DNA of 63,724 bases, from the IMG/VR virus record IMGVR_UViG_3300044630_000814, positions 1-63,724 of that record. One strand, 5' to 3'. The stretch's first letter is position 1. Each line of letters opens with the position of its first letter. Positions 20,201 to 56,722 of this stretch are shown here, one piece after another. The position numbers and the translations under genes were made by a program. A model generated the notes under the pieces. It saw only the letters and a list, made by a program, of their open reading frames with translations. It made no database searches and was not told where the DNA came from. Source of the DNA: a virus. Taxonomy: Duplodnaviria; Caudoviricetes.

Positions 20201-23200
20201 GAACGCCGCCTGCCGTTAGAAAAAATTGAAGCTCAACTTGATGTAGCCCGCACGCGAAGTGCTGAGCGAGCCATGGGTGCTTCCAATAGTGAACGTGCAA
20301 CTCCGAGCGAAAGGCTTCAAGGTCTTATATACCGGATGCAGGATGCGTGGAAGGTGCTTACTGGTAAGCCTATACTGGCCAATGCTAGGTTAGCAGATTT
20401 GCTGCGCGACCCAGACATTCTCAGCAAAATGAATCCTGCGCAGCGGGGGCTTGCTGCTGCCTTGGCGGATGTCATAGATGACGACGTTGACGTCTATATC
20501 GGCAATCTTAACTTTAGCCCCCAAGAAGCTTTTACCTTAGGAACTGCCACTGTTTATGACGGCGCAGCCCCCGACGTTCGTTTGCGCGGGGTGTCAACCG
20601 CAGCAAACATTGTAACCCTCCTTCACGAGGCAGTTCACATTGCTTTGATAGCTAAGTTTGGCTCGGACTTTAAGCGTTTAACAGACCTTGGCCCTGACGC
20701 TGACCCAGAAATGCTTGCATTACGCGATGAAGTCTATAACTTGATTGATGCATACAACACCATGTTTGAGGTGGAGAGTTCGGCGGACCTACTGCTCAAG
20801 GCATCCCCGTACGGCATGAAAAACCTAGACGAGTTCATCGCTGAAGGACTGACCCAACCGAGCTTCCAAAAATTCTTGGAGAAGGGTAACCTGTGGACGC
20901 GTTTCGTAGCGTTAGTGCGGAAGCTGCTTAAGCTGCAACCTAAATTCCAGCCTCAACTGGATAACGTACTAAAAGCTGGCGCTAAACTAATTGCCGCGTC
21001 CAAGAACATCGACCGTATGGAGTATGTATCGGGCACTTTTGAGCAGCGGAAAAAGGCTGCTCCTAAAGGTAAAGGTAGTGCACAAGAGAGGGTCGCTACC
21101 GGCGAAGCAGAGATTAATCGTGGTGTGGCCCAAGCACAAATGGCAGCGGACATGCTGGAGTTCACCGATGGTCTCAGTGCGGCTATCGACGGGCGCGACG
21201 GCAGCTTCTTCCTCCCCTCGATAAAAGAAGGATGGGCTTCCTTCAATGACGCTACCCGTGAATATATACTGCCCGCACTGACCAGCTCGTTCATTATTAA
21301 CGATATTGATAAGGGCCGGTTACCGCCATTGCGGCGTATGGAGACGATTGAAGCTAACATCCGTGGGGCGCAAAACAGGATGCGTGCCCAATTTGGGAAG
21401 CTAGACCGGCGTTTTACGAAGTTCGTCAACCGTACAGGGCAGCGTGTCCTTGCAACGACTATGCATGCGGCACGCATCAACGAGTTCTCCCCCTCGGACT
21501 TCTCGTCGTTAGATAATGCGCTCCAGAACGACCCTATTATGGTTTGGTACAATGACGCAATAAAGGACCCAACCGTTAGCAAGGGGCAGGTCGCTGCGTT
21601 TAAAGGCAAGAAGACCATCCGCGAGAAACAAATTAAGGCGGTCTGGAAGCTTTGGGAAGAGCTTGGTAAGCAAAAGAACGGCCACGACATTTATGTGCGC
21701 GTCCGCGATTTTTACGCTGATATGTATACTATCATGCGTACCGAGCAGAACAGCTTCATCAAGAAACTACCTATCGACGATGCGGCTAAAGAAGAGCTTC
21801 TTGTAGCGGTGGACCCCGATACTTTTGCTGAAGGGGAGGCAGACCCGAATGACCCGCATGCTGGTATCCCAGACAGCGTACGTCCCAAGGAGTACTTCCC
21901 TTTCCGCCGTTACGGTAAATATTGGCTGACGGTTAAAGGCGATGGCATAAAAACAGGCCGCGAGCGCCACCACTTCGAAACCGCTTTTGGGCGGAATGCC
22001 TTCCTGCGTAAGCGCGCCAAGGAGTTGGGTGTAGACCCACAAAATGAAAACGTTTTCGAGAAGGGTAATACCCTAGAGGACTTCCAGAATAACTTGGTCG
22101 AGAGCAGCTTGATGCTCAGCAATATATTCTCAGTGATTGACAAGGCCGTTATTTCTGGGAACTACGACACCACTAAATACGCTACACCTGCTGAAGCACT
22201 AGAAGCCATGAAGAAAGAGCTTAGGGATAAGCTCTACCAGACGTACCTCATGACACTACCAGAGCGCAGCCTTCGTAGGCAGTTTATCCATGCCGAGCGC
22301 GTGACAGGTTTCAGCAGCGATGTACTGCGTAATTTCAGGTCCAGTTCTGCACAATACGCGGTGCAAATCCCGAAGCTGCAGTATGGGTCCGACGTTAACA
22401 GCGTAATCAGCGAAGGCTATGATGCCCTTGAAGGCATGCCTGTGGACGAAAAAGCCGCCGCAAGAACTTACGTGGATGAAATGGTCCAACGGCTGCGCGG
22501 AGCCATCAACCCAGAAGCACCGAATGCATTCGTGGCGGGGGTTAGCCGGTTTGCTTTCTACGAAGTCATGTCCAGCATTGCGTCTGCTGCATCGCAGATG
22601 TTGTCCGTCCCGATCTCGGTTATGCCTAAACTCAATGCGGACTACGGGTACACCGCAGCTGCCGCTGCTTTTATGCGTTACTCCTTCATCCCGTACAGCT
22701 TCGGTCTTCCTGAGCGTGACGCAGATGGCATGTTTTCACAAGTTATGCCTTCGATAGGGACGTCAGTAGCGGTAAAAAGTAACCCTATCCGTGCCCGTGC
22801 GTTTAAGGAATTTACCGACCGCGATTTGTTCGACTCTTCTGCGGCTAGCTCCCTATTCCTCAACAACGAGATGGCGCATACATACTCTTCGTACAACATT
22901 CCGGCGGAAGTGCTCGGGCTGGCGTTTAAGGCTATGCGTCTTCCCTTCACTATGTTTGACGTGGCTTCTCGTGAGATGAGCGCCATGATGTTCTTCGACC
23001 TTGACTACGGCAAAAACCGTAAGGACGGCATGGAGCCAGAGGAAGCATATAACGCTGCTATCCAGAACACTGTTAATGGCTTGAACGAAACTATCGGTAG
23101 CCACAACTTGTTCGAGCGTCCGCGTTACATGGTCGGGCAAATCCGCCAACTGCTTTTCCTGTTCCGCATGTACGCTGTGAACCGCACCATGTTTGGTTTG

Positions 23201-24202
23201 CGTATGGGTATACAAGTCATGCGGGGTGAGAATGCCACTGGCCGTACTCGCGCTGCTGCCATACACGAACTAGGTGGCAACTTGGCAATGGTGGCAGTCC
23301 TTGGTGGTATAGCAGGTGCACCGCTGTTAGACGTGGTGTGCGGGGCTATTGATATGATCCTGCCGTCGCTCATGGATGACGAGGAAGAAGAAGAGTTCCG
23401 GCGTCAGCACCCATATTCATACAACAACTCCAAGCACCGGTTCCTGTACGAGTGGCTGCCGGAGAATTTTGGTAACCCTACACTGCCCGGTCTAGATGGT
23501 AAGCAGCATGCGCTGGCAGATGTCCTGCGTAACGGTATACCGTCCGAGCTTATCGGCGTTAACTTCGCATCTCGTGTTAGCTGGAACGGCATGTGGATAC
23601 GCGACAGCATCCCCGGAGAAAACTGGAGCGAGTCAATCGTAAACTGGCTTGAGACCAACCTGTCTCCCGGTGCGGCTATCAGTATCGAGTTCATCAAAGC
23701 GCTTGAGGATGTGTACAAGGGTGACGTTATGCGTGGTCTTGAGAAGATAGTCCCCGGCACATTCCGTGGTTCTATAACTGCCGAGCGGCTGTCAACTCAG
23801 GGGGCAGAAACCCGCAAGGGTGGGAAAATGTTCGCAAAGGACGAAATTACAGCTTTGCAGCTTAACTTCCAGCGTATGGGTTGGGCACCGAACGAGGTAT
23901 CGGATTGGCAGCGTGAGCGTATGGGCGCCCTCTCTATGATTAACGCCGTTACTGGCGAACGCACTGACCTTATGGCTAAGCTAAATAAAGCTAAGTCCGA
24001 CCCCGAAGGTTCCAGCGAGACAGTTGCTGAAGTCGAAGCCGATATCCGTGAGTTCAACAGGTTGCACCCAATACCAGAACTGCAGATTGAAGAGGAAGAC
24101 ATAGCCAAGTCTCGTAGCCGCTACCTACAGAGCGAACTGGATAGCTATCGTGGTATGCAACTTACTGCGGAGCAGAAGGCTCTTATGCTAAAGTACAAAT
24201 AA
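17255..24202 (+). CDS. Giant (2315 aa) ejected polyvalent-type protein with zincin metallopeptidase-like domain
   Basis: Duplicated N-terminal IKAPDGNTYxIEGP module, acidic EAAP linker, LLHEAVH...DEFIAE zincin motif, helical C-terminal region; last late gene. Confidence 0.75.
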   Translation: MPTYRIKAPDGNTYRIEGPPNASQADVIAAVMRQNPSAGVAKVTHQIKAPDGNTYAIEGPKNATQKEVAAAVIRQKPTAGKPPAPVKPTPKAAVEIGKRTKELDESAASLNRMIAETQRLSKLPGATASMREKANVAIEEYRKTLANIANEKGYMQRTGTLVPERSFGEIATDTLKGLGAGALRTVAGIPSLLGAVGIESPGKASEQAAERFIQRNLAPDESDAAQFGTFAQQGRRLSEVAGSVLPAFATRGASRAGMAVAGPRAVPILTRTEQAAQLALGAGPGAQQQRQAIEQYEAETGKVVNPLVRALAQAGGAAIGATEVLTLDAMMARVPSKLRGSMTSKLAGLVERIEAGGISPKAAAAEVRTLMADIQKTGRGRVGVAMLEEGTQEGTAQFAQNVLEKTAYNSEKDVTEGVAENFIYGAVVGGGVRGLTELVTKVTGGVETANKIKSDAKLIAATMRLQENPNDDAAFDTIVERMVESYGITPEKAALYAQQQLGRAREEGDTDVPDADTGVDDFGGTDAGTASDIGTTPSISGATDVGETVGGGLERAVSGVSTTDVGEGAGVSSLDETKQILADKKVKLTERVNVARQLLNDTILNNPLVSVNDVDQKQFDAAKKQLANGKYNGDPVAALEAVTGKKFAAPLDVNTTVEDVNTQEIQGGLDAVTQGIAENQAQIKSFIQGIEENQAKLAAAPEVTTPPLDVQATAPVKTAIESVTTPAPDASPIPSLAQASAQQLGITPTAAPEAAPEMAAPEVAPLSREEKPVYDPADYTPQEIYDNLTRFGYKEAERRGYVFNTAENGMFGEGVREAKNPDIQPLTDEQVLSLERGSPEVLAAYKEGQQWGKEQVAAVQAAPVAEEAALEAAPVQEPVQGYVDTRKQELAAQEAADVEAEANLRQEIEARKQQEEAAPVAEAAALEAAPVAEEVAPEVVTAPIEEAAPEVDPYAGVLADIEAALADEAIDARTHKLLTSAVERRLPLEKIEAQLDVARTRSAERAMGASNSERATPSERLQGLIYRMQDAWKVLTGKPILANARLADLLRDPDILSKMNPAQRGLAAALADVIDDDVDVYIGNLNFSPQEAFTLGTATVYDGAAPDVRLRGVSTAANIVTLLHEAVHIALIAKFGSDFKRLTDLGPDADPEMLALRDEVYNLIDAYNTMFEVESSADLLLKASPYGMKNLDEFIAEGLTQPSFQKFLEKGNLWTRFVALVRKLLKLQPKFQPQLDNVLKAGAKLIAASKNIDRMEYVSGTFEQRKKAAPKGKGSAQERVATGEAEINRGVAQAQMAADMLEFTDGLSAAIDGRDGSFFLPSIKEGWASFNDATREYILPALTSSFIINDIDKGRLPPLRRMETIEANIRGAQNRMRAQFGKLDRRFTKFVNRTGQRVLATTMHAARINEFSPSDFSSLDNALQNDPIMVWYNDAIKDPTVSKGQVAAFKGKKTIREKQIKAVWKLWEELGKQKNGHDIYVRVRDFYADMYTIMRTEQNSFIKKLPIDDAAKEELLVAVDPDTFAEGEADPNDPHAGIPDSVRPKEYFPFRRYGKYWLTVKGDGIKTGRERHHFETAFGRNAFLRKRAKELGVDPQNENVFEKGNTLEDFQNNLVESSLMLSNIFSVIDKAVISGNYDTTKYATPAEALEAMKKELRDKLYQTYLMTLPERSLRRQFIHAERVTGFSSDVLRNFRSSSAQYAVQIPKLQYGSDVNSVISEGYDALEGMPVDEKAAARTYVDEMVQRLRGAINPEAPNAFVAGVSRFAFYEVMSSIASAASQMLSVPISVMPKLNADYGYTAAAAAFMRYSFIPYSFGLPERDADGMFSQVMPSIGTSVAVKSNPIRARAFKEFTDRDLFDSSAASSLFLNNEMAHTYSSYNIPAEVLGLAFKAMRLPFTMFDVASREMSAMMFFDLDYGKNRKDGMEPEEAYNAAIQNTVNGLNETIGSHNLFERPRYMVGQIRQLLFLFRMYAVNRTMFGLRMGIQVMRGENATGRTRAAAIHELGGNLAMVAVLGGIAGAPLLDVVCGAIDMILPSLMDDEEEEEFRRQHPYSYNNSKHRFLYEWLPENFGNPTLPGLDGKQHALADVLRNGIPSELIGVNFASRVSWNGMWIRDSIPGENWSESIVNWLETNLSPGAAISIEFIKALEDVYKGDVMRGLEKIVPGTFRGSITAERLSTQGAETRKGGKMFAKDEITALQLNFQRMGWAPNEVSDWQRERMGALSMINAVTGERTDLMAKLNKAKSDPEGSSETVAEVEADIREFNRLHPIPELQIEEEDIAKSRSRYLQSELDSYRGMQLTAEQKALMLKYK

Positions 24203-32314: not shown

Positions 32315-33073
32315 TCATTTAAGATTGCCACCGCTCTGCAGGATGTCACCACCAAACACATACGTGCCTACATGGTGCAGCTTGATGAACGGGTGGGCGT
32401 GTATTTTGCCACCGTGGTTGCGCCACAGTTCGCAAAAATGGTAATCTTCGCTTAGCAATGCGCCACTGGCGTCTATGCTGGTAGCGAAAAACTCGTGGGT
32501 CAAAGGCTTGGCATACTCGCCTGTCACTGGGTCTTGGAACGATGATACGCGGTAGGTGGGTACGTGGGGTATAAGGTGCTCGAATACCCCCCGCTTGATG
32601 AGCATGAAGCCTGTGCCACCATGGCGGACCTCAATGCAGCCTGTCTCGTCGCTGTGCACATCTTCACCCCCGACCATGTTGAACACAAATGCTCCGGCAT
32701 GGTTCTCAAGGTCGGACTTACCTGCAAGTGCTGCACGGTTGACGCTATCCCAGTTCACTTCCTTCTTAGGGTAGATACCGCATGCGATGTCCTTGTCGGC
32801 CAGCAACAAGTGCGCGATGGCCTCACTGTCGAAACCAATGTCGGCGTCAATGAACATCAGATAGTCGTGGTCACTCTCAAGGAACACCCGTGCCAGTTCG
32901 TTACGCGCCCGTGTGATAAGGCTCTCGTTCATAATCTGACACCATGCCACATTGACGCCGATTTCCCGCATCTTGTTCATGGTCATCAACAAGCCTTGCA
33001 CATAGTGCCCCGTGCACATGCCCCCATACATGGGTGTGGCAATCATTAGGCTTGGGCGTTTTTCTTCAGTCAT
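32315..33073 (-). CDS. GT-A-fold glycosyltransferase-like protein (middle copy)
   Basis: IATPMYGG, SLITRARN, FIDADI (DxD), GTGFMLI, SEDYHFC, HVG. Confidence 0.75.
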   Translation of the reverse strand: MTEEKRPSLMIATPMYGGMCTGHYVQGLLMTMNKMREIGVNVAWCQIMNESLITRARNELARVFLESDHDYLMFIDADIGFDSEAIAHLLLADKDIACGIYPKKEVNWDSVNRAALAGKSDLENHAGAFVFNMVGGEDVHSDETGCIEVRHGGTGFMLIKRGVFEHLIPHVPTYRVSSFQDPVTGEYAKPLTHEFFATSIDASGALLSEDYHFCELWRNHGGKIHAHPFIKLHHVGTYVFGGDILQSGGNLK

Positions 33074-33227
33074 TTGCTTTTTGCTTTCTCTTTAATTTGT
33101 AATAGCGGCCTTCCACGGAGGCAATCGTAAGCCCCATTCGTTCCGCTATATATGCTGGCCTCAAGCCATGTTGGTAATAAGCCAGTAACTCTGCGTCCTT
33201 CTCAGGAGTCCATACTTTTTTAGGCAC
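33066..33227 (-). CDS. GcrA/Myb-like HTH mini-protein (53 aa, not in ORF track)
   Basis: GAGGAGG RBS, GTG start; MPKKVWTPEKDAELLAYYQHGLRPAYIAERMGLTIASVEGRYYKL. Confidence 0.7.
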   Translation of the reverse strand: MPKKVWTPEKDAELLAYYQHGLRPAYIAERMGLTIASVEGRYYKLKRKQKAND

Positions 33228-33406
33228 TATTTACCTCCTCGGAAACGGCCACGCTCGTCGCGGTCCGTTAATTTATGTAGTTCGGCGTTTAGCCGCTCGT
33301 TCTCGCGCTTAAGTGTAAGGACGTTCCCGTCCGCGCTGCCCTTACCAAGTAAGTATCCAAACGCAGGTAGCGCAATAAAAACTACTACTAATACTAAGAC
33401 TTCCAT
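33227..33406 (-). CDS. Small membrane-anchored protein (59 aa, not in ORF track)
   Basis: AGGAG RBS; N-terminal TM helix, short coiled coil, C-terminal RDERGRF. Confidence 0.65.
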   Translation of the reverse strand: MEVLVLVVVFIALPAFGYLLGKGSADGNVLTLKRENERLNAELHKLTDRDERGRFRGGK

Positions 33407-33425
33407 CTCTGCTCTCCTCTCTTGG

Positions 33426-33941
33426 TTATCTACGTACTAATTTCTTCAACTTCCCAAGCGTTGACCCCAGTGTCGCGCCTGTGCTGCCGTTAGCTATAGG
33501 CAGACTGTTCGGAGACTGCCCCGCTATGTGTGTAACCCCTGCGCTCCGGTACATATCACGGTCCACGTCGTACACACCTAGCTGTCCCACGGCATTCTGA
33601 TACTGCTGCATTTGCTGCATTTGCTGCTGCATTGCTTGCTGCTTCGTAAGTAGCAGTGACTTTGAAAGGTTACGCTCGTACTCCTGCTCTTCAAATACCT
33701 TGCGGCGGCGCTCTTCACCGTTAAGCAACTCGTCCATCACCCGTTCGTGGGTTTCGGCCAGTCGGATTTCCCGTAAACCTTCGGCCATTGCAGCCTTGTC
33801 AGCCTCACTCCCAAAAGCCTGTATCGAATTTACGTGGTCATACCAGCGGTCGTGGAACGGTGCGTCTGCGACCCTAAACTCTTCGGGGTGGCTCTTCATC
33901 CGCTTGAGTAGCAGTGTTACTACCTCGTGTGGCTCACTCAT
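33426..33941 (-). CDS. Hypothetical protein, HPEEF family paralog 1
   Basis: VTLLLKRMKSHPEEF...RW...RVMDELL; paralog of 37583-37879. Confidence 0.75.
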   Translation of the reverse strand: MSEPHEVVTLLLKRMKSHPEEFRVADAPFHDRWYDHVNSIQAFGSEADKAAMAEGLREIRLAETHERVMDELLNGEERRRKVFEEQEYERNLSKSLLLTKQQAMQQQMQQMQQYQNAVGQLGVYDVDRDMYRSAGVTHIAGQSPNSLPIANGSTGATLGSTLGKLKKLVRR

Positions 33942-34339
33942 TGGTCTGCTCCTAGTTTCTCTAGCGTATCCACAAGGTCCCGCGCACGGCGCACAAAACT
34001 ACCAAGCTCGTTGCGTGTTCTGTCGATACGTGAAAGGGTATCCCTTAATGCTTGGATTGTGTGGTACTCGCTAGAGGCCGTTGTCCCCTCTGGTTCGTCA
34101 ACAAGCCAAAGTATGTGTTTCCATTCGACCAGTGACTTCCTACCAAAGTTAGGGGTCCGCAGCATCTCTTCATCTGATATGTGCCTCAGGTCTTTAACCT
34201 TTGGCAGGGGCAACGTGCCAGCTGGCTCAAATGGTCGCCACCCGTGTATGTCTCTGTACATACCAAGGAGGCAGTTGGCCGTCCGTACCGATAGCTCTAG
34301 GTCGTCAATCAGCGTTTCGTTTGTAGGTTTAACCAACAT
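33938..34339 (-). CDS. RNA polymerase alpha-subunit C-terminal-domain-like protein
   Basis: IDDLELSVRTANCL...EEMLRTPNFGRKSLVE matches the RpoA alpha-CTD; AAGGAGCAG RBS. Confidence 0.85.
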   Translation of the reverse strand: MLVKPTNETLIDDLELSVRTANCLLGMYRDIHGWRPFEPAGTLPLPKVKDLRHISDEEMLRTPNFGRKSLVEWKHILWLVDEPEGTTASSEYHTIQALRDTLSRIDRTRNELGSFVRRARDLVDTLEKLGADQ

Positions 34340-34547
34340 GGTCTGCTCCTTCTCTCTGCTTACGTGCCTCGTCAATACGGGCTTGCTGTGCTGCTCGGCG
34401 GCCTTCCCTACCTACAACCTGACGCGCTCGCTCACGGGTAAGCCCATACTTTCGCCCCAAGGCTGCGAACGTGGTTCCTTGCTCCTCGCGTTCCCTATGG
34501 ATTGCTAGGTCTCGCTCGGCATTAACCCTAACTCCTTTAACCGCCAT
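34329..34547 (-). CDS. Sigma70 region-4-like HTH protein
   Basis: GTTFAALGRKYGLTRERARQVV resembles sigma region 4.2 (TLEEVG..F.VTRERIRQIE). Confidence 0.7.
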   Translation of the reverse strand: MAVKGVRVNAERDLAIHREREEQGTTFAALGRKYGLTRERARQVVGREGRRAAQQARIDEARKQREGADHVG

Positions 34548-36354
34548 AACTTTCTCCTATGTGGCTTTCACAGTTTAATGGTAATCCTAACGCCCACTTG
34601 GGGCGTATACGCATGCAAATCTCTACGAACTCTTGGGCGCGTTCGGCTTCTTCTGTTGGGACAATGCAGCCCACAGCGTCATGCACCGTCATGACCACAC
34701 GATACTTACGGGCAATCATCAACATCTGTTCGCCAATCACGATACGAGCGAGAGCCTGACATACATTCTCGATGAGCTTCCCACCGTATATGCGGTTAGG
34801 TATAACCGCCTTACCTCTCTTCTGGTCGTAAATCATCTCTTGCTTGCCATCGGTAAACACCCACCGAAGGTTCGGATATTTGAGGTATAGCCCGTTGGGT
34901 AGTCGGATACCGTTGTATCCTTCAACCTGTACAACGCCAGCAAGCCCAAGGGGTGCTGTCTGGTTGTTAGCGATAGCGTCGAGCGCCTCGCCAGCCTCAC
35001 GCCACAACTCAGGGATTTTAGGGTAAGTCTCCCGATACACCCTGATGATGCGGTCGCATTCGCTTTGCGGTAGGTCCACACCCATTGACTTAAGCTGGAT
35101 GCGGAACTTTTTAGGCCCCATGCCATACCCTGCACCGAGGATTGTTGTCTTACCCACGAACCGCTGGTCCTTGGTCACAGCCTCGCGGTCAACGCCGTAT
35201 ATGGAGGATGCCATAATTTTATAAACGTCCTCGCCTTTCTCGAAGGCATCCACAAGGTCGTTCTGCCCTGCCAGCCACGCTAAGGTCCGCGCTTCAATCT
35301 GCGAGGAGTCGCTGTCCACAAACATATGGTTCGGAGGTGCGAGGATGCAGTCTTTGAGGGGTGAGTTGCGAGGTAGGTTCTGCATGTTAACCTTATCGTC
35401 GCCGCCCCAGCGCCCCGTGTGTGCTGCGTAGTAGCGTAGTGGGATGGGTAGTAGTCCCCGTGTCGCTATGCCCATGAACCGTTCGGTGCGTGTCTCTTCC
35501 AGCGTAGACTTTACCCCTAGCCGCGCAGCTACAAGCGCTTGAACCTGTGGGTCCTCATGCTCCAACAGTGCCTTGAACTCCTCGTCGCTCTTGGCGAACG
35601 CATAGGTCTCCTTGCCCGTGGTTGGGCTAATCTTCGTTGGGGGTGTTACACCTAAGTTTGTTAGTATCTCAGCAAACTTCGGGTTACTCATCAACTGTTC
35701 GCGGTCAGCGTTTATCTTTTCCATGAGCAACGCTTTGTCTTCACGCACTTTACCAAGATGCGTTACCAGTGAGTAGTAACCTACCTCCAGTGTAGGTTCA
35801 GTGAACATGCGTATCGTCAGGTCTATGAGCCGCAGTTCAGCCACAGGGAAGTCCACCGCAAGGCACTCGAAAAGCTTATAGGTAAGCTCCGTGTCGTTGA
35901 CACAATACTCTGCGTAGCGGGATAGCTCGTCTGACGTGAAGTCCAGTCGTCCTTTGCCAAGTGCGTTTACGACCTCGTTGCCTTTTACCCCTAGCTTATA
36001 GTGTTCGGCCAGTGCTTTTAGGCTTCCGCTCACCGACGTGCCGTGCTTGGCCCGTGCCATAGATAGCGTGTCCACTATGCGTTTGGGTCGGATGTCGAAC
36101 TGCCAGTTGAGGATAGCCATGTCGAACATGGCGTTGTGTGCCACGGCGGTCGCCTCGTCCCACGCAAACTGCGAAAGCCATTTTTGCGTAGCTTCCTTCG
36201 GACCGGAGAACCACTGGGCCGGTGCGTCGTTCACCTTTACAGATACGCCGATAGCCTCAAACAACTCATCGCGGATATACTCTTCGGTGGTAACCTTGGA
36301 GAGCGAGTAGGTCCGGTCGTAGTAAGTCTCGAAGTCGATGGTCAGGATGGTCAC
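34537..36354 (-). CDS. polA: DNA polymerase family A with 3'-5' exonuclease
   Basis: IDFET (ExoI), AHNAMFD, YCVND; TGRW, NMQNLP, DSSQIEAR (motif A), KTTILGAGYG (motif B), VHDA (motif C). Confidence 0.9.
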   Translation of the reverse strand: MTILTIDFETYYDRTYSLSKVTTEEYIRDELFEAIGVSVKVNDAPAQWFSGPKEATQKWLSQFAWDEATAVAHNAMFDMAILNWQFDIRPKRIVDTLSMARAKHGTSVSGSLKALAEHYKLGVKGNEVVNALGKGRLDFTSDELSRYAEYCVNDTELTYKLFECLAVDFPVAELRLIDLTIRMFTEPTLEVGYYSLVTHLGKVREDKALLMEKINADREQLMSNPKFAEILTNLGVTPPTKISPTTGKETYAFAKSDEEFKALLEHEDPQVQALVAARLGVKSTLEETRTERFMGIATRGLLPIPLRYYAAHTGRWGGDDKVNMQNLPRNSPLKDCILAPPNHMFVDSDSSQIEARTLAWLAGQNDLVDAFEKGEDVYKIMASSIYGVDREAVTKDQRFVGKTTILGAGYGMGPKKFRIQLKSMGVDLPQSECDRIIRVYRETYPKIPELWREAGEALDAIANNQTAPLGLAGVVQVEGYNGIRLPNGLYLKYPNLRWVFTDGKQEMIYDQKRGKAVIPNRIYGGKLIENVCQALARIVIGEQMLMIARKYRVVMTVHDAVGCIVPTEEAERAQEFVEICMRIRPKWALGLPLNCESHIGESYGG

Positions 36355-36560
36355 TGCTTTGCCGCCTCTTCCACGGTCATCTTGGGGCAGCGGTCGTTTG
36401 GTTTAATCTCGATGCTCTCGATGGTGTAGAAGCTAGGCCCACACTCAACGATGTCTTGAAGCTCGAAAAGTTCCTCGACGTTAATCGTGGTGCTGCGTGG
36501 CCCATCCCCATGGTAATAGGTCAGCGTTACTGTCCAGCGTGGTTTTCCATTAGTAATCAT
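36351..36560 (-). CDS. Hypothetical protein
   Basis: AAGGAGCAA RBS; EELFELQDIVECGPSF motif; coupled to polA. Confidence 0.65.
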   Translation of the reverse strand: MITNGKPRWTVTLTYYHGDGPRSTTINVEELFELQDIVECGPSFYTIESIEIKPNDRCPKMTVEEAAKQ

Positions 36561-36571
36561 TCGCTTGCTCC

Positions 36572-36649
36572 TTAAAATTTAATCTCATCGTCGGCCCAGT
36601 CGTAAATATCCCAGCCGAAATTATCGAACAGGAATTGGCGCAGGGTCAT
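36572..36649 (-). CDS. 25-aa acidic/aromatic peptide ending DDEIKF (not in ORF track)
   Basis: ATGA overlap with the upstream stop; MTLRQFLFDNFGWDIYDWADDEIKF exactly fills the gap to the next RBS. Confidence 0.55.
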   Translation of the reverse strand: MTLRQFLFDNFGWDIYDWADDEIKF

Positions 36650-36996
36650 TTGCTTTGTTCCAGTGCTGCGCGAGCAACATCACCAAAGTCGAGGCTATCA
36701 ATACCCCACGGACCAGTCATCAGTTCCTGTGCGTAATACTCCAAAGCATCCCGCAGCCGCTCAATCTCTGCCGCTTGGGCTTCGATGGTGGCATCGGTCT
36801 GGGCGCGGGTGTTCCATGCTGCGATTGCTTCGGCTTCCGTTTTAAGTTCTACGCTTGGTTGTGCGAGACAGTTATTCTCATCGGAGCAAAATATTAACCA
36901 GTAACCATAAGTGCTATCGCCGGACTTTGGCGGGTTCCCACAAAACGGGCATGGCAATAGCACAGCCTCGCGTTCCTGCTTTGCATCGTTCGTCAT
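36646..36996 (-). CDS. Lar-family (restriction alleviation-like) zinc-ribbon protein
   Basis: LLPCPFCG...C....C...EAIAAWNTRA followed by an EIERLR coiled coil. Confidence 0.7.
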   Translation of the reverse strand: MTNDAKQEREAVLLPCPFCGNPPKSGDSTYGYWLIFCSDENNCLAQPSVELKTEAEAIAAWNTRAQTDATIEAQAAEIERLRDALEYYAQELMTGPWGIDSLDFGDVARAALEQSK

Positions 36997-37367
36997 TGCC
37001 CCTTCTCCCGTATCTCAATCTCAAAACCAGAATTTTCCAATTTGGCGCGGATGTGGTGAGCATAACTTTCTGCGTGTTTTCGGCTTTCAAATCCCGACAA
37101 CACGCTTTCAATAGCATCCACCAGCGGGTCAGGCTTGGGCTTGGGGATGATGAAGCATTGCATATGCTCTGGTGCGTATTCTGCGTAATGGTATTCCGAC
37201 ACAATCGCATCGCTCACCTTTTGCTTAAAGGCTTCGTGTTGTTCGATGGCGCGGCATAGTGCTTCTATTTCAGGCTCGCTGCGATAGAGTTCAAAATAGG
37301 CTAGGTTGCCACGTTCATCTGCTACCTCATTCAGGAGCGCCAAGGCTTTTGCTTCAATGTCGGTCAC
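36993..37367 (-). CDS. Hypothetical protein
   Basis: Coupled overlaps on both sides; ALCRAIEQHEAFKQ motif. Confidence 0.65.
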   Translation of the reverse strand: MTDIEAKALALLNEVADERGNLAYFELYRSEPEIEALCRAIEQHEAFKQKVSDAIVSEYHYAEYAPEHMQCFIIPKPKPDPLVDAIESVLSGFESRKHAESYAHHIRAKLENSGFEIEIREKGQ

Positions 37368-37546
37368 AGCGCCCTCCCTATCTCAATGCCCTTGCGGATG
37401 CCTTGCTCGACCAGACGCATCCAGATGGTGTGGTCGTAATCACCAGCCAAGTAGTTCTGTGACGCCAAGCTATTTTCTTTCCATGCTTGCAGGGCGCAGA
37501 TTTCCCGTGCGGCCTCGCGGATTATCATGTCATCTTCGTTAGTCAT
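37364..37546 (-). CDS. Hypothetical protein
   Basis: AGGAG RBS; AREICA...YLAGDYD. Confidence 0.65.
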   Translation of the reverse strand: MTNEDDMIIREAAREICALQAWKENSLASQNYLAGDYDHTIWMRLVEQGIRKGIEIGRAL

Positions 37547-37582
37547 TCGCTTCTCCTATGATAGTAAGCACACCTAACAGGG

Positions 37583-37879
37583 TTAGGTGCTGCCATCGGT
37601 TAGCAGCGTAGCCATAACCCTGCGACTGAAGCTATCGCCTTGGATGCTCATATACTTATCGTAGAGTATGAGGATTTCACGGTCTGTCAGGAACCCAAGG
37701 GACTCGTGATGCAGCACTGGGTCCTCGTCCGGTGACTTGTTCATAAAGTCTATCCGTGTCTTGACCGCCCCCATTACCCACCTCCACTTTTCGCGGACAT
37801 GTTTGTCTGGGTTGTGGGTATTAAACTCTTCGGGATGAGTATCCATCCGTTGCAGCAAAAGCTCTACACCTTGGTTCAT
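37583..37879 (-). CDS. Hypothetical protein, HPEEF family paralog 2
   Basis: VELLLQRMDTHPEEF...KW...RRVMATLL. Confidence 0.75.
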   Translation of the reverse strand: MNQGVELLLQRMDTHPEEFNTHNPDKHVREKWRWVMGAVKTRIDFMNKSPDEDPVLHHESLGFLTDREILILYDKYMSIQGDSFSRRVMATLLTDGST

Positions 37880-38124
37880 ATGTTTGGCCCCATAAATTTT
37901 TTATATGCGTCCATCTCGTCGGGAGCGTCTGTGATTTTGACGGGGTTTGTGCCCTCGTCTCGCTCAAACCATGGCACGATTTTGGTAACTTTAAGTTCCC
38001 CAGTGTTGGAGTCATGTTCAGCGTAGACTGCCCATGTGTTTCCATACTCCTCATACTTCATACCAAACAGCTCGTTTAGGCCCGGAAGCAGTTCCTTGAG
38101 TAATTGGGCGCGACTGATAGCCAT
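37876..38124 (-). CDS. Small protein whose N-terminus copies the major capsid protein N-terminus
   Basis: MAISRAQLLKELLPGLNELFGMKYEEYG vs capsid MAISRAQLLKELLPGLNALFGLEYARYG (23/28 identical); GGAGG RBS. Confidence 0.85.
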   Translation of the reverse strand: MAISRAQLLKELLPGLNELFGMKYEEYGNTWAVYAEHDSNTGELKVTKIVPWFERDEGTNPVKITDAPDEMDAYKKFMGPNI

Positions 38125-38429
38125 CAGTGAACCTCCCCTTTTAATTTTTTAACAAGGTCAGGGAGCATGTCGTAGTTCGTCTCGTCTACTACTACAGCTA
38201 CGCCGTTAGACCGACGTATCGCTTCAATCTCGCGCACCTGTAGTGCCGTAGTCTTGCCGCCGTTTGCCTTGCACTCAACGGCAAGAAACCAGCCGTTCAC
38301 ACAGGCTACAATGTCGGGGACGCCACTACGTCCGAAGCCGTGGGTTGCGGGGGAAAAGAAATATACTTCATGTGCAGTGAAGATAGATTTTACCTTATCC
38401 TTCACTTTTTTCTCAGGCGTTGCTGCCAT
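38124..38429 (-). CDS. VRR-NUC / Holliday-junction-resolvase-like nuclease
   Basis: TPEKKVK...GVPDIV...AVECKA...TALQ; AAGGAGCAAAC RBS. Confidence 0.85.
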   Translation of the reverse strand: MAATPEKKVKDKVKSIFTAHEVYFFSPATHGFGRSGVPDIVACVNGWFLAVECKANGGKTTALQVREIEAIRRSNGVAVVVDETNYDMLPDLVKKLKGEVH

Positions 38430-38453
38430 GGTTTGCTCCTTGTTTGGCATCCC

Positions 38454-38481
38454 ACCATACACCATCGGTTTACAATGTCAA
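38454..38481 (-). promoter_or_regulatory. Sigma70-type middle promoter with near-palindromic operator over -35
   Basis: TTGACA-16-TATGGT; TTTACA-A-TGTCAA at 38469-38481. Confidence 0.6.
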
Positions 38482-38492
38482 ATGCTAAGGAT

Positions 38493-38520
38493 AAAAAAAG
38501 ACCGCCCCGAAAGGCGGTCT
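38493..38520 (-). terminator. Intrinsic terminator ending the early operon
   Basis: AGACCGCC-TTTCGG-GGCGGTCT stem-loop followed by a U-run on the minus strand. Confidence 0.85.
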
Positions 38521-38549
38521 AGTCTAACATAGTTAGGAGCAACTATATG

Positions 38550-38723
38550 TTATCTGTGTGTATCAGCGTAGTCCGCTAAGACTTCACGCATCTTAGCCGT
38601 GTAGCTAGGGTATGTTTTGTAATAGTCTAGCACCTCCGTTGGTATGCGTAGGTGTGTCAGGCTCATGGCCGGACGCTTGCCCAGCCCACGCTGCCCTCGG
38701 TATCGTTTTGGTTCTTCAGTCAT
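38550..38723 (-). CDS. Ribbon-helix-helix protein, BrnA-antitoxin-like (57 aa, not in ORF track)
   Basis: RGLGKRPAMSLTHLRIPTEVLDYYKTYPSYTAKMREVLADY; ATGA coupling to the upstream gene. Confidence 0.65.
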   Translation of the reverse strand: MTEEPKRYRGQRGLGKRPAMSLTHLRIPTEVLDYYKTYPSYTAKMREVLADYADTHR

Positions 38724-40773: not shown

Positions 40774-41982
40774 TTATCCTTTGATATGCACAGTTTTGCC
40801 AACTGGTGACACGATACGGCCTGAGCTGTAGCGATGCTCGGAGATTACCCACATGATAGGCGCACCCCAGTCGTCACCCCAGTCACCGACATACCCGTCA
40901 GTCAGCTGGATGATGCACTCTGGCTTGATGTTTTGTTCCTTGAGGTAGTGCATCATACAGGTTGGGTCAGTGCCGCCACCGCCCACTGGCTTGGTAGAGC
41001 TAACAAGGTTAGACATGGTTGCCATGTCATAGACCTCATGCCCTGCCACCGCTCCGTCCCAATAGATGAGGTCTATCTTGTCGGGATGCACCTCCTCGAC
41101 GATAGCCTTGACCTCGGACAGGAACACGCTGAGTTCGTCCGCACCGATAGAGCCGCTTGTGTCTACGCCGATAGCGATATGCCCGACCTTCTCCCCTACT
41201 AGCGTAGGGAGATATACGTCTTGGCTTAGCATGCGCCTGTTGACCCTGCGCCATGATGACGCATCCTTGGCATTGCAAGTAGCGGACACAAACTCACGCA
41301 GTGCTTCGCGCCAGTCTATCTGTGGTTGGAGCATGTCACCCAGCTCGCGGTTGACACCTAGCCCGCCTTTGCCCGCAGCTTTCATAGATGCTATCTGGCC
41401 TTGGCGTAGGGCTTGGTCCACCTCGCGTTCTAGTTCCTTGCGCTCGTCGGCAGTCATTTCCTTGGCCCCGTCCCAGTCATGCTCGTCGAACCCTTCGCCG
41501 CCTTGACCACCATCAGGGTTATCCTTCTTCTCCTGCTTGAGTATGTCGAAGACTTGCTTGGTGTTCATGCCTTTGAAGCGGGTGTCGTAACACGCCATCG
41601 GTGTGCCATCCTCGCGGCGAACCATAGCGATGACTTGCTCGTTCGGGTCCATCTCCATAATCATAAGGTTGATGACATGGTCCATTGCGATGTTGGCTAG
41701 GTGAGGGTCCTCTGCTCGGAGCTTCTGCCACGTTGTCATGTGACGTAAGCCCTTGTGCATGTTCTCGTGTAGCACGACGAAGCCCAGTTGCTTCTCGTCT
41801 AACTTTGTTATGAACTCCAAGCCGTATATCTCGTCACGCCCGTTGGTGCATGCCGTTGGCACGTCCTCGGCTACGCTGGTCTTGCCGACCATCATGATGC
41901 CAGACCACAACGCAAACATGGGGTTGCGCATCAGGTTAATCTTGACTTTCTTGAGCTTGCGCTCAGCTTTCTGCATATCCAT
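40774..41982 (-). CDS. Metallopeptidase-like + VWA domain protein (DUF2201-like)
   Basis: TACTNG, LHENMH (HExxH), NIAMD..IN, VDTSGS MIDAS, GGGGTD, LTDGY. Confidence 0.85.
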   Translation of the reverse strand: MDMQKAERKLKKVKINLMRNPMFALWSGIMMVGKTSVAEDVPTACTNGRDEIYGLEFITKLDEKQLGFVVLHENMHKGLRHMTTWQKLRAEDPHLANIAMDHVINLMIMEMDPNEQVIAMVRREDGTPMACYDTRFKGMNTKQVFDILKQEKKDNPDGGQGGEGFDEHDWDGAKEMTADERKELEREVDQALRQGQIASMKAAGKGGLGVNRELGDMLQPQIDWREALREFVSATCNAKDASSWRRVNRRMLSQDVYLPTLVGEKVGHIAIGVDTSGSIGADELSVFLSEVKAIVEEVHPDKIDLIYWDGAVAGHEVYDMATMSNLVSSTKPVGGGGTDPTCMMHYLKEQNIKPECIIQLTDGYVGDWGDDWGAPIMWVISEHRYSSGRIVSPVGKTVHIKG

Positions 41983-42004
41983 TAGTTTGCTCCTTGTGTT
42001 GGTA

Positions 42005-43072
42005 TCAAAGTAGGTCCTCGTTATCCCGCACCCAGTTAGCGAATGCAGCGGATGAAAACGCAACCGACTGGCGCTGCGGGTTCTTCGCAATGTTGATAGC
42101 GAAGCATGCTTGCCACTCTGGTTCGAAGCGGGACAGGTAGGTCATGAACGGCGTCATTGTCTCTTTAGTCACCTTCATGATTGCACCAAAGATAAGCACC
42201 GCACATGCTCCTGCTGACGTAGGGATAGCCGCATCATTCGGCTTGGATGTGATGTTCTCCCATGTGGGTAGCTGGTCTTGGTATGTGATGTAGGCTTGCA
42301 TGTCCCGCGCTGCTGCCTCACCGATTGTGCCTGATAGCGCAGCGGTAAGAGCGTTGGATGAAATCCGCTCACGATGCCTCACAATGTTAGATGCACGCGA
42401 CAAAGAGCGTGGGCTGACATAGGACTTCTGCATAGCCTTGGGGTTGTAGATATATGCGTTCTCGTTCTGCGTGCCGTCAGTGTATGAAGCCAGCGCATGC
42501 GGGAACTGCTTAACCCAAGCCATGACAACAGGCTCAACGTCATTGTTGATTGCCCACTCAAGCCACTGGTCGCTGTCAGGCTTGGCTACGCGCACTCTGG
42601 ATACTCTGTTAAGAGTATGGCCCTTGATAACATCGCCGACACCATCGCTCGACAAGTTAGATGTGAGGAACACGATTGAGTCTGGATGTAGCTCAATGTC
42701 GCCCAGTCGTGGGTTGTGTTCTTCGAGTAGCGGGTGAAGCATATTCTGCACAGGCGGCGGAGCCTTGGCAAACTCGTCAAGCATGATGACTGCTGGCTTG
42801 CCATGCTGCAACTGGAGCGCAGCATTGGGGAAATACTCTGTTACCCGTAGCTCTCGGTTGACGCTTGGCATGGCAATGTCACCCAAGTCCTTCTGCGCAC
42901 AGTCGAAGTAGGCATAGACGTAGCGGTCACCTAGCTTGGCCTTGAGCGCCTTCATGATGCTAGACTTACCAATCCCAGGTTCGCCTTCGAGCAGGAACCG
43001 ATTGTCGGGGATGGCTGCGATAAGCTCTGCGGCTTCGGCAAGTGAGATGTTTGAACCAAAATCAATAGACAT
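42005..43072 (-). CDS. MoxR-like AAA+ ATPase
   Basis: Walker A GEPGIGKS, Walker B MLDEF, sensor TSN, SPRS. Confidence 0.85.
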   Translation of the reverse strand: MSIDFGSNISLAEAAELIAAIPDNRFLLEGEPGIGKSSIMKALKAKLGDRYVYAYFDCAQKDLGDIAMPSVNRELRVTEYFPNAALQLQHGKPAVIMLDEFAKAPPPVQNMLHPLLEEHNPRLGDIELHPDSIVFLTSNLSSDGVGDVIKGHTLNRVSRVRVAKPDSDQWLEWAINNDVEPVVMAWVKQFPHALASYTDGTQNENAYIYNPKAMQKSYVSPRSLSRASNIVRHRERISSNALTAALSGTIGEAAARDMQAYITYQDQLPTWENITSKPNDAAIPTSAGACAVLIFGAIMKVTKETMTPFMTYLSRFEPEWQACFAINIAKNPQRQSVAFSSAAFANWVRDNEDLL

Positions 43073-53087: not shown

Positions 53088-53278
53088 CACATGAGTTACT
53101 GATGTACCTGTCAAAAAAGGTACAGGAGGAGATTGACGTGATGAGCGGCGATCTCGCCCGTGGGACCGCAAAAGACCATGGGGAATATAAATACGCCTGC
53201 GGGATTATCCGTGGGCTTATGACGGCAAACGGTTTCATTGCTGAAGCCGCACAAAGAATGGAACAAGACGATGACTGA
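53084..53278 (+). CDS. Small conserved head-module protein
   Basis: L..G.AKD..EYKYACG.IRGL; AAGGAG RBS. Confidence 0.7.
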   Translation: MTHELLMYLSKKVQEEIDVMSGDLARGTAKDHGEYKYACGIIRGLMTANGFIAEAAQRMEQDDD

Positions 53279-53705
53279 TATTGTTGGGGTCACCACCCCC
53301 TCGTTAGTGGGCCTCAATGGCAAACCCATTGTGGCAAAGGACAAAGAACCGGAAGTTCCGGTAGAAGATCGCGCAAAGCAGCTTCCAGACCCATCCGGCT
53401 ATCGCATTCTGTGCGCTATCCCAGAAGTCGAAGAGAAGACCGCTGGCGGTATTTTCAAGGCCGACTCGACCAAGCAGTTTGAAGAACTCACTACCCCAGT
53501 ACTTATGGTGCTGAAGATGGGTCCAGATTGCTACAAGGACGAGAAACGCTTCCCATCTGGCCCATGGTGCAAGGAAGGTGACTTCATCCTTACTCGCCCA
53601 CATGCCGGTAGCCGTGTGAAAATCCATGGTCGTGAGTTCCGCATCATCAACGACGACAGCGTAGAAGGCATCGTTGAAGACCCTCGGGGCATTTCCCGCG
53701 CTTAA
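53271..53705 (+). CDS. GroES/Cpn10-like co-chaperonin
   Basis: PSGYRIL...EEKTAGGIF...GP...GD.IL...G..VKI.GREFRIINDD. Confidence 0.8.
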   Translation: MTDIVGVTTPSLVGLNGKPIVAKDKEPEVPVEDRAKQLPDPSGYRILCAIPEVEEKTAGGIFKADSTKQFEELTTPVLMVLKMGPDCYKDEKRFPSGPWCKEGDFILTRPHAGSRVKIHGREFRIINDDSVEGIVEDPRGISRA

Positions 53706-55810: not shown

Positions 55811-56722
55811 ATGGCAATTTCACGCGCACAACTTCTTAAAGAACTGTTGCCCGGACTGAACGCTTTGTTCGGCCTTGAGTATGCACGTTACGGCGAAGAG
55901 CACAAAGAAATCTACGAAACGGAAACTTCTGAACGTTCGTTCGAAGAAGAAACGAAGCTTTCTGGTTTCTCGGCTGCTCCAGTCAAGAACGAAGGTTCGG
56001 CCATCGCGTACGACAACGCACAGGAAGTCTTCACTGCTCGCTACAACCACGAAACGATTGCCCTCGGGTTCTCGCTCACGGAAGAAGCGATTGAAGATAA
56101 CTTGTACGACTCCTTGTCGTCGCGTTACACAAAGGCATTGGCTCGCGCCATGTCCTACACCAAGCAAACTAAAGCTGCTGCAGTCTTGAACAACGGCTTC
56201 GACACCGATTATACCGGTGGTGACGGCCAACCATTGTTCTCGGCTTCGCACCCATTGGTTTCTGGTGGCACGAACTCGAACATCCCAAGCACTCCTGCTG
56301 ATTTGAACGAAACGTCGCTTGAAGCGGCTGTAATTCAGATCGCAGCGTGGACGGATGAACGTGGCCTTCTCATCGCGGCTAAACCGCGTAAGCTGGTAGT
56401 TCCGCCAAGCCTGATGTTCGTTGCTACTCGCTTGCTCGAAACCGAACTCCGCGTTTCGACAGCTGACAACGACATCAACGCTCTGAAGTCAAACGGCTCG
56501 ATCCCAGAAGGATACGCCGTAAACCACTTCTTGACCGACACTGACGCGTGGTTCTTGACCACCGACGTGCCAAACGGTCTGAAGCACTTTGTTCGTACGC
56601 CAATGGCGACGGGCATGGACGGTGACTTCGATACTGGTAACGTACGTTACAAGGCTCGTGAGCGTTATTCGTTCGGCTGGTCAGACCCTCTGGGTATGTA
56701 CGGCAGCGAAGGCGCAGCCTAA
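55811..56722 (+). CDS. Major capsid protein (HK97 fold, Mu gpT-like family)
   Basis: MAISRAQLLKELLPGL, EG.AI.YD, TEEAIEDNLY, LVVPP.L, ARERYSFGWSDP; strong codon bias; followed by a terminator. Confidence 0.9.
   Translation: MAISRAQLLKELLPGLNALFGLEYARYGEEHKEIYETETSERSFEEETKLSGFSAAPVKNEGSAIAYDNAQEVFTARYNHETIALGFSLTEEAIEDNLYDSLSSRYTKALARAMSYTKQTKAAAVLNNGFDTDYTGGDGQPLFSASHPLVSGGTNSNIPSTPADLNETSLEAAVIQIAAWTDERGLLIAAKPRKLVVPPSLMFVATRLLETELRVSTADNDINALKSNGSIPEGYAVNHFLTDTDAWFLTTDVPNGLKHFVRTPMATGMDGDFDTGNVRYKARERYSFGWSDPLGMYGSEGAA

Follow-up and report, generated by a model that had tools for sequence, protein, structure and literature searches.

Positions 33066-38723 of an uncultivated freshwater tailed phage genome of about 64 kilobases (kb) carry 15 minus-strand genes, most of which overlap or abut, in the middle of the early/replication block. 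The window analysed here is the entire IMG/VR virus record, which is 63,724 base pairs (bp) long and estimated to be complete. Seven of the 15 genes had been interpreted in an initial annotation as an array of mimics, each reproducing an interaction surface of a host or phage protein: a BrnA-like ribbon-helix-helix (RHH) protein, a copy of the capsid N-terminus, a Lar-like protein, a 25-residue peptide resembling the tail of single-stranded DNA-binding protein (SSB), a helix-turn-helix (HTH) protein resembling region 4 of sigma factors, a C-terminal domain of the RNA polymerase (RNAP) alpha subunit (alpha-CTD) and a GcrA-like HTH protein. All seven open reading frames (ORFs) were present on the minus strand where they had been placed (Table 1). 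We consider it likely that the seven look-alikes are real and heterogeneous, a mixture of accessory and backbone genes exchanged independently around the DNA polymerase gene polA, and that they are neither co-inherited nor parts of one operon-level device. The region as a whole has a conserved backbone and one hypervariable slot on each side of polA; in these slots small accessory genes are gained, lost and swapped singly.

A scan of IMG/VR with the window polA gave 489 relatives. The best 80 of these (67-94% identity), with up to 10 kb on each side, were searched by tblastn with 22 window proteins, and co-occurrence was counted in the 31 relatives that span the segment from the nuclease through polA to the glycosyltransferase. 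The conserved order begins with genes for proteins of 94, 280 and 299 amino acids (aa), followed by the 57-aa RHH gene, the nuclease, slot A, polA and slot B. After slot B come the 171-, 59- and 53-aa genes (each at times missing), the glycosyltransferase, a DUF6378 protein and a PD-(D/E)XK nuclease. The backbone gene polA separates the two variable slots, and the VRR-NUC/Hjc-like nuclease, found in 53 of the 80 relatives, is the upstream anchor of slot A. Slot lengths differed widely: slot A, between the nuclease and polA, measured 15-2373 bp across 53 loci, and slot B, between polA and the glycosyltransferase, 641-2795 bp across 49. The 364 slot ORFs of at least 40 aa fell into 105 clusters, about half of which were singletons.

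None of the 31 relatives contained all seven items. The RHH gene was present in 23, the GcrA-like gene in 14, the alpha-CTD-like gene in 7, the 25-codon micro-ORF in 4, the capsid-tag family (the gene with the capsid copy) and the sigma-4-like gene in 3 each, and the Lar gene in 1. When only the five accessory items were considered, 19 relatives had none, eight had one, three had two, and a single relative (L040) had four. Among the nearest relatives (polA identity 93-94%), L002 had no accessory item, and L003 and L004 had one each. The initial annotation, which had proposed a coordinated cassette, took random scattering of the members in relatives as evidence against it; in the 31 relatives the members were essentially scattered.

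Two further observations concern the integrity of the stretch. In a close relative, represented by a contig from run X3, the 60-aa, 124-aa and Lar genes are missing as a single block: position 36644 is joined directly to 37542, so that 897 bp are skipped, with 6 shared bases at the joint, which lies at the 5' end of the micro-ORF. In the window itself a putative terminator and a putative promoter between the RHH gene and the nuclease appear to split the stretch into at least two transcription units. Both signals come from a consensus scan in which total site counts were no higher than in shuffled sequence. Taken together, the absence of any relative with all seven genes, the terminator/promoter split and the block loss in the X3 contig indicate that the flagged genes do not behave as a unit. 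The grouping was a selection of seven from fifteen genes, the other eight being the nuclease, ORFs of 98, 60, 124 and 69 aa, polA, and ORFs of 171 and 59 aa, and the cassette does not hold up.

Pfam searches with 104 representatives of the slot clusters matched nine families: Sigma70_r4 (two representatives, best E 3.4e-12), alpha-CTD, methyltransferase, PDDEXK_14, SNase, Bac_DnaA_C, Transposase_20, HTH_24 and, weakly, DUF790. The expectation that the slots of relatives would hold captured fragments was correct insofar as alpha-CTD, Sigma70_r4 and DnaA-domain-IV-like proteins were found there, but the seven flagged genes are not inherited as a unit. The DnaA-domain-IV-like protein is a stand-alone 116-aa ORF (L061:4512-4859, and three further loci) that scored 30.5 bits with Bac_DnaA_C against a cut-off of 31.5 (E 3.8e-7). 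The commonest slot-B gene of the relatives codes for a Methyltransf_24 methyltransferase (40 loci, e.g. L061:3785-4543) and is absent from the window. The commonest accessory family, cluster 0, occurred at 46 loci and in both slots, and includes the 98-aa and 171-aa ORFs of the window, neither of which had been flagged; these two share an N-terminal motif, and the family had no Pfam or PHROG match.

Several points weigh against the interpretation of independent exchange. The tblastn threshold (E<=1e-3) may miss tiny or fast-evolving homologs, so that the counts from which absence was read are lower bounds. Some items may travel together, as suggested by L040 (polA 70% identical to that of the window), which has all but one of the five accessory items. 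The sigma-4-like and alpha-CTD-like genes co-occurred in two of the three relatives that have the former, as they do in the window; these numbers are small and non-independent, and are a hint of a functional pair. Finally, the slots of relatives recurrently hold stand-alone pieces of the host transcription and replication machinery (Sigma70_r4 in two, alpha-CTD in one and Bac_DnaA_C in one of the 104 representatives), a thematic coherence that is unexpected of a purely random gene bin.

The same observations bear on the explanation offered originally, namely that the seven genes form a coordinated decoy or host-takeover cassette of captured epitopes, which would blunt abortive-infection sensors of capsid, of SSB or the replisome, and of RNAP perturbation. 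Four members are true partial copies of larger host or phage proteins, the capsid N-arm copy is retained by peptide-level selection (see below), L040 has most of the accessory items, and in relatives the same slots contain other fragments derived from hosts, all of which such a cassette would accommodate. Nevertheless, we regard this explanation as very improbable. Co-inheritance was not observed in the counts given above, two of the members are backbone genes with whole DNA-binding folds, and the seven are spread over what appear to be two transcription units with eight unflagged genes interleaved. Moreover, early expression of an epitope that a sensor recognises should set off that sensor and not blunt it, unless the copy binds non-productively. 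No defence-related family was found, and nothing in the analysis connects any member to abortive-infection sensors. For the stand-alone DNA-binding modules in the slots the simplest action would be binding to their cognate DNA sites and not decoying of immune sensors.

In several respects the region resembles the hypervariable early-gene ('moron' or host-takeover) regions of tailed phages: small, translationally coupled ORFs lie between conserved replication genes, their content varies even among close relatives, and few of them have database matches. It differs in the sharp limits of its slots, set by polA and two anchors, and in that stand-alone DNA-binding modules of the host RNAP or DnaA kind occur there repeatedly.

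The most unusual of the seven is the 82-aa protein. In a tblastn search within the window its residues 1-28 matched the segment 55811-55894, which encodes the start of the major capsid protein, with 82% identity (E 3e-12), and residues 1-25 are a copy of the capsid N-arm helix. At the DNA level 54 of 84 bases agreed with the capsid gene; 7 of the 28 codons were identical, 16 were synonymous (including a TCA/AGT serine switch) and 5 non-synonymous. Upstream of the ATG no DNA likeness to the capsid gene was found beyond the ribosome-binding site. Since 16 of the 23 conserved codons are synonymously different, selection acts on the peptide. The copy is therefore old and retained by peptide-level selection, and is neither a recent duplication nor an assembly artefact.

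Among 5.8 billion proteins with lengths of 45-144 aa, 478 matches were found, most of which were truncated or frameshifted capsid genes. The true family consisted of 34 sequences, 29 of them tagged and five with other N-termini. In the tagged members conservation was 0.91 in the tag and 0.59 in the body. Position 18 was Glu in 27 of the 29 tagged members and Ala in all 61 capsid proteins compared. Two database proteins, P0071 and P0077, carried the same tag on unrelated bodies; these bodies matched none of 287 locus sequences in six frames, and the two proteins are therefore not frameshifted capsid genes of those loci. No further tagged small proteins were found in IMG/VR: all 80 matches examined were of capsid size, and no small ORF was present among 71 occurrences of the tag. 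A conservation profile of the capsid proteins had its maximum in the first 25 residues, but the loci had been retrieved via N-terminal patterns, and this biased profile was not used as evidence.

In the AlphaFold2 model of the 82-aa protein (pLDDT, predicted local distance difference test, 81) the tag is predicted as a helix of residues 4-25 and the body as a small domain of three strands and a helix. The model of the capsid protein has a helix of residues 5-27 on an HK97 fold, and its nearest Foldseek matches were encapsulins and HK97-type capsids (E about 5e-8). With the 82-aa model no Foldseek match in the PDB at E<=0.001 and no usable ESM Atlas match were found.

A scaffold candidate, a 316-aa acidic coiled-coil protein with a well-conserved basic C-terminal helix-turn-helix, is encoded at 53736-54686, upstream of the capsid gene. 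By analogy with other phages the tag may bind to this protein. Complex prediction with residues 190-316 of the candidate and the 82-aa protein gave scores of 0.00 and 0.03 (mark 0.32), which speak neither for nor against binding. Tentatively, the N-arm helix of the HK97-fold capsid could be a portable N-terminal tag on small early proteins, making the contact that the N-arm makes in the procapsid, either with the C-terminal helix-turn-helix of the scaffold or with neighbouring subunits. In this reading selection on the peptide has maintained the tag over a long period, as indicated by the near-saturated synonymous sites and by the family-specific Glu at position 18. Such a tag could load the protein into the head for co-injection, it could time or poison capsid assembly, or it could titrate a host sensor of the capsid N-arm. 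The tag does not simply track the cognate capsid: the homologs in L045 and L048 have different N-termini, yet the capsid of L045 is 97% identical to that of the window. No long protein sharing the N-terminus of the untagged member P0003 was found, which is weak evidence.

The nearest precedent for a shared N-terminal address is the capsid targeting sequence (CTS) of phage T4, a short conserved N-terminal peptide on diverse internal proteins that directs them into the prohead scaffolding core (PMC3012670). The window tag may be comparable as a short N-terminal peptide on more than one kind of small protein: its conservation greatly exceeds that of the body, and in the database it occurs on at least two other bodies (P0071 and P0077). 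Unlike the T4 peptide, which is a separate sequence, the window tag copies the N-arm helix of the capsid protein itself, so that head loading would make it a CTS analogue built from capsid protein. A further difference is that the window gene lies in the early block, and that no prohead protease was identified.

The 25-codon micro-ORF is, judged by its conservation, a real micro-gene. A degenerate DNA pattern located it on 53 IMG/VR contigs, and in all 53 loci it was intact, with 24-25 codons and an end of the form [IL][RKI]F. Variation was concentrated at codon 8 and codons 19-24, and some synonymous changes were present elsewhere. In the window its ATG overlaps the stop codon of the Lar gene (ATGA), and its stop codon abuts the Shine-Dalgarno sequence of the next gene. 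In 41 of the 53 loci the ATG overlapped the stop codon of an ORF that lies upstream and is at least 40 codons long. A homolog of the 124-aa ORF lay within 1.4 kb upstream in 19 of the 39 loci with enough upstream sequence, and a Lar gene was upstream in 3 of these 39. The downstream gene varied widely, polA lying within 1.5 kb downstream in just 7 of 28 loci. Homologs of the 69-aa ORF, the next gene in the window, were found in 4 of the 80 relatives, in every case downstream of the micro-ORF. No Rfam family was matched at threshold at the micro-ORF, and the z-score for RNA folding was 0.53. The nucleotide conservation amid unrelated flanks, together with the position of the X3 joint at its edge, suggests that the micro-ORF is also a recombination patch.

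The C-terminal tip of bacterial SSB consists of an acidic stretch and a Pro before the terminal Phe; acidic tails ending in Phe are also present in phage replication proteins. The tail of the micro-protein ends in DDEIKF, and resembles the SSB tip over six residues: an acidic stretch, a hydrophobic residue, one more residue and a terminal Phe. The Phe was terminal in 53 of 53 loci. The residue preceding it was Arg or Lys in 52 loci and Ile in one, and never the Pro of the SSB motif. Among the window's ORFs of 20 aa or more, taken from all six frames, only the micro-ORF had an acidic tail ending in an aromatic residue. The description as SSB-tail-like thus stands for a real, conserved ORF with an acidic tail ending in Phe, and is limited by the six-residue length of the resemblance and by the Arg/Lys in place of Pro. 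In contrast to SSB, the product is a free 25-mer with an aromatic-rich N-terminal half and no oligonucleotide-binding (OB) fold, and its gene is not consistently beside polA. The micro-protein and the capsid-tag protein would both act at the peptide level.

The alpha-CTD-like protein scored 46.5 bits with PF03118, well above the cut-off of 23.8. In alignments with 9zum, 7ye1 and 1coo both helix-hairpin motifs, LELSVRTANCL and LRTPNFGRKSL, were kept, and with the best matches, 9zum and 7ye1, there was an identical stretch of 13 residues. Motifs of these kinds in alpha-CTD contact DNA. The protein thus agrees with RNAP alpha-CTD (PF03118; 1coo, 7ye1) in passing the Pfam cut-off and in keeping the LELxVRSANCL and LxTPNxGxKSL motifs, and differs from the bacterial alpha subunit by the absence of the N-terminal domain (alpha-NTD), by a 16-aa insertion between the helix pairs and by a C-terminal helical tail of about 55 aa, which is conserved in relatives. 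The closest relative, P0121 (133 aa), aligned from residue 13 of the query, so that translation probably begins at the ATG of codon 13. With a length of 133-145 aa and no alpha-NTD, the protein is a domain homolog and not RpoA. The counterpart in the relative L078 matched PF03118 with E 3.8e-21. A search of 1.84 billion representative proteins gave only 60 matches at E<=1e-3, many of them with fewer than about 200 residues. The 50,697 deposited phage records yielded no more than five matches, four annotated as rpoA or alpha subunit and one in an unannotated 2-kb record that matched in the same way. No PHROG match was found for the window protein.

The 72-aa sigma-4-like protein scored 17.6 bits with Sigma70_r4 (PF04545), below the cut-off of 24.1, and slightly better with Mor. 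It is shorter than its relatives (101-212 aa) and has no other domain, sigma region 2 being absent. A profile built from eight members matched 3n97, 1l9z, 1rio, 1ku3 and 4g6d (E from 2e-4 to 1e-3), and TRERIRQ, the recognition-helix motif, was aligned; the top match was a designed repeat protein.

The alpha-CTD-like protein, which keeps the DNA-contact motifs and has a probably dimerising helical tail, and the sigma-4.2-like protein, which appears to keep the recognition-helix motif, would most likely bind DNA near promoters, at UP-element-like or -35-like sites, and so redirect or compete with host RNAP. A narrower form of the cassette idea is that these two proteins, possibly with the GcrA-like one, act jointly on host RNAP and promoters by mimicking the arrangement of alpha-CTD, sigma region 4 and DNA at UP/-35 promoters. 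The two genes are adjacent and overlapping (34329-34547 and 33938-34375), the first protein keeps DDLEL and VRxANCL and the second appears to keep TRER-RQ, and both genes are present in L040 and in L078. We consider such a sub-module unlikely. Five of the seven relatives with the alpha-CTD-like gene have no sigma-4-like gene, L034 has the HTH gene and no alpha-CTD-like gene, and L078 carries the two genes in different slots; in addition, the assignment of motifs to contacts relies on work with the E. coli proteins.

Two of the seven, the RHH and GcrA-like genes, belong to the backbone or semi-backbone. The window RHH protein gave no Pfam match at E<=0.1 and no PHROG match. In its family 13 of 26 members matched PF14384 at E<=1 (best 4.6e-5), and homologs were found in 41 of the 80 relatives, always directly upstream of the nuclease. 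It shares with the BrnA antitoxin (PF14384) the RHH-type strand-helix-helix core. Unlike a BrnTA pair, it has no adjacent BrnT-like toxin, the neighbours being the 299-aa protein, which matches no family, and, past the putative terminator, the nuclease. In one relative (L034:6769-7083) the BrnA-like RHH carries at its N-terminus a fused Cys-rich extension resembling a zinc ribbon, for a total of 105 aa.

The 53-aa GcrA-like protein aligned to positions 3-46 of the 155-position Pfam model of GcrA (PF07750) with 14.9 bits (cut-off 26.9, E 0.035); Myb (3e-4) and Sigma70_r4_2 (1.5e-3) were further sub-cut-off matches. Ten of 19 relatives of this protein matched PF07750 at E<=0.1, with a best E of 9.4e-4. 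A profile of the 19 members had as its best natural-protein match the GcrA DNA-binding domain (DBD) 5yiu (E 5.4e-4), and its overall top match was a designed repeat protein. Phage-encoded GcrA homologs are reported in the phiCbK genomics paper (PMC3556154). Compared with GcrA, the window protein comprises only the DNA-binding helix bundle of about 45 aa and has no C-terminal sigma-binding domain. For the sigma-4-like and GcrA-like proteins the designed-protein top matches and the similar scores of other HTH families indicate resemblances and not memberships. The names BrnA-like, sigma-4-like and GcrA-like are thus supported at the family level, whereas the window copies themselves were below Pfam cut-offs or without a match.

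Residues 13-65 of the Lar protein matched PF14354 (E 1.2e-12, 48.3 bits against a cut-off of 28.6), and the protein also matched phrog_599 (E 6e-11); a partial homolog was found in only one of the 80 relatives. Going by the family name, it is a possible restriction-alleviation protein. The designation 'stand-alone fragment', which had been given to all seven, applies to the alpha-CTD, sigma-4-like, GcrA-DBD-like and capsid-N-terminus genes, but not to Lar and the RHH protein, which are whole small proteins.

The backbone consists of the RHH gene, the putative terminator and promoter, the VRR-NUC-type nuclease, polA, the GcrA/Myb-like HTH gene and the glycosyltransferase. In this layout the BrnA-like RHH and GcrA-DBD-like HTH proteins are backbone DNA-binding proteins and most likely regulators of phage transcription.

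The resemblances might also be due to chance, to faulty ORF calls or to misassembly. For three of the seven the window copy was below the Pfam cut-off, and many of the database proteins that matched the capsid tag were in fact capsid genes, frameshifted or truncated. However, Lar and alpha-CTD exceed curated cut-offs, and these two assignments, like that of the capsid copy, are strongly confirmed; the 29 tagged members of the capsid-tag family come from several sources, the micro-ORF was intact in every locus in which it was located, and a second lake sample (run X2) yielded contigs identical to portions of the region. This explanation, already largely refuted, is hardly tenable.

Table 1. Coordinates of the genes and signals discussed, in order of transcription, and of the major capsid gene
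Feature	Coordinates	Strand	Remarks
RHH protein, 57 aa	38550..38723	-	BrnA-like at family level; backbone; last gene of the putative upstream transcription unit
Putative intrinsic terminator hairpin	38520-38499	-	9 bp stem and T-run; consensus scan only
Putative sigma-70-like promoter	38481-38454	-	TTGACA-16-TATGGT; 3' of the terminator hairpin; consensus scan only
VRR-NUC/Hjc-like nuclease, 113 aa	38124..38465	-	phrog_93 1.3e-16; Pfam Hjc 1.1e-4
82-aa protein with capsid N-arm copy	37876..38124	-	start overlaps nuclease stop
98-aa ORF	37583..37879	-	paralog of 171-aa ORF; cluster 0; no Pfam/PHROG match
124-aa ORF	36993..37367	-	no Pfam/PHROG match; commonest upstream neighbour of the 25-codon micro-ORF
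Lar-family zinc ribbon, 116 aa	36646..36996	-	PF14354, phrog_599; C-terminal helical extension
25-codon micro-ORF	36572..36649	-	aromatic-rich N-half; acidic tail ending Ile-Lys-Phe
69-aa ORF	36351..36560	-	translationally coupled to polA; no Pfam/PHROG match
polA, family A DNA polymerase with 3'-5' exonuclease	34537..36354	-	PF00476 1.6e-33; PF01612 1.9e-10; phrog_17 9.4e-87
Sigma-70 region 4.2/Mor-like HTH, 72 aa	34329..34547	-	Mor 3e-4, Sigma70_r4 2.7e-3, both under cut-off
Stand-alone RNAP alpha-CTD-like protein	33938..34375	-	PF03118 3.1e-12
171-aa ORF	33426..33941	-	paralog of 98-aa ORF; cluster 0; semi-conserved, in 20/31 fully covered relatives
Myb/GcrA-DBD-like HTH, 53 aa	33066..33227	-	phrog_323 6.2e-8; semi-backbone; upstream of glycosyltransferase
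Major capsid protein, HK97 fold, Mu gpT-like	55811..56722	+	phrog_371 6.5e-25; PF10124 6.7e-11

By PHROG and Pfam assignments the plus strand carries structural genes (terminase, portal, a Cpn10-like protein and the Mu gpT-like major capsid protein), and the minus strand carries, between about 24.4 and 47 kb, the early/replication block with a primase-helicase, a helicase, a PD-(D/E)XK nuclease and polA. In this block neither PHROGs nor Pfam identified an SSB gene, though such scans could miss a diverged one, and no tRNA genes were found in the window. The Cpn10/GroES-like co-chaperonin gene (53238-53705, plus strand; phrog_3188 1.3e-12, Pfam Cpn10 1.5e-5) lies between the portal gene and the scaffold candidate. 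A pair of paralogous glycosyltransferase-like genes is split between the two blocks, one at 32315-33073 on the minus strand in the early block (phrog_1574, E 1.8e-45) and the other at 57602-58339 on the plus strand among the structural genes (E 1.2e-37). Upstream of the flagged stretch an overlapping gene pair (40774-43072, minus strand) codes for a 438-aa protein matching phrog_1314 (label HNH endonuclease, 1.9e-86) and a 355-aa ATPase matching phrog_1297 (3.1e-46). A single ORF of 2315 aa (17255-24202, plus strand) follows the tail genes.

The window polA was at most 37.5% identical to that of named phages, the top match being Rhizobium phage RHph_TM3_14A, followed by phages like Pseudomonas phage KPP25, and no near-identical relative was present among the 50,697 deposited phage records. 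Lake, estuary and aquaculture metagenomes from about 15 studies contained pieces nearly identical to parts of the flagged stretch. In two genomes, G001 and G002, the capsid protein was 96-97% identical to that of the window, against only about 70% for polA. Divergence thus differs greatly between the structural and the replication modules, which points to a mosaic history.

Three items of the region are apparently undescribed: the family with the capsid N-arm tag, the 25-residue micro-protein and the family of stand-alone alpha-CTD-like proteins. None of them was described in a limited library of literature on phage alpha-CTD homologs, capsid decoys and SSB-tail mimic peptides. For this large group of uncultivated freshwater phages, the 'mimic array' gives way to a map that can be tested, in which two exchange slots, one on either side of polA, are set in a conserved backbone. 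The capsid N-arm tag could reveal a new way to address proteins to HK97-type procapsids, or to interfere with these. The micro-protein, present in at least 53 viral contigs, would escape routine gene callers. The stand-alone alpha-CTD-like proteins would be a new phage tool acting on promoter-proximal DNA or on partners of alpha-CTD, the matches in deposited phages being only to bacterial-type rpoA.

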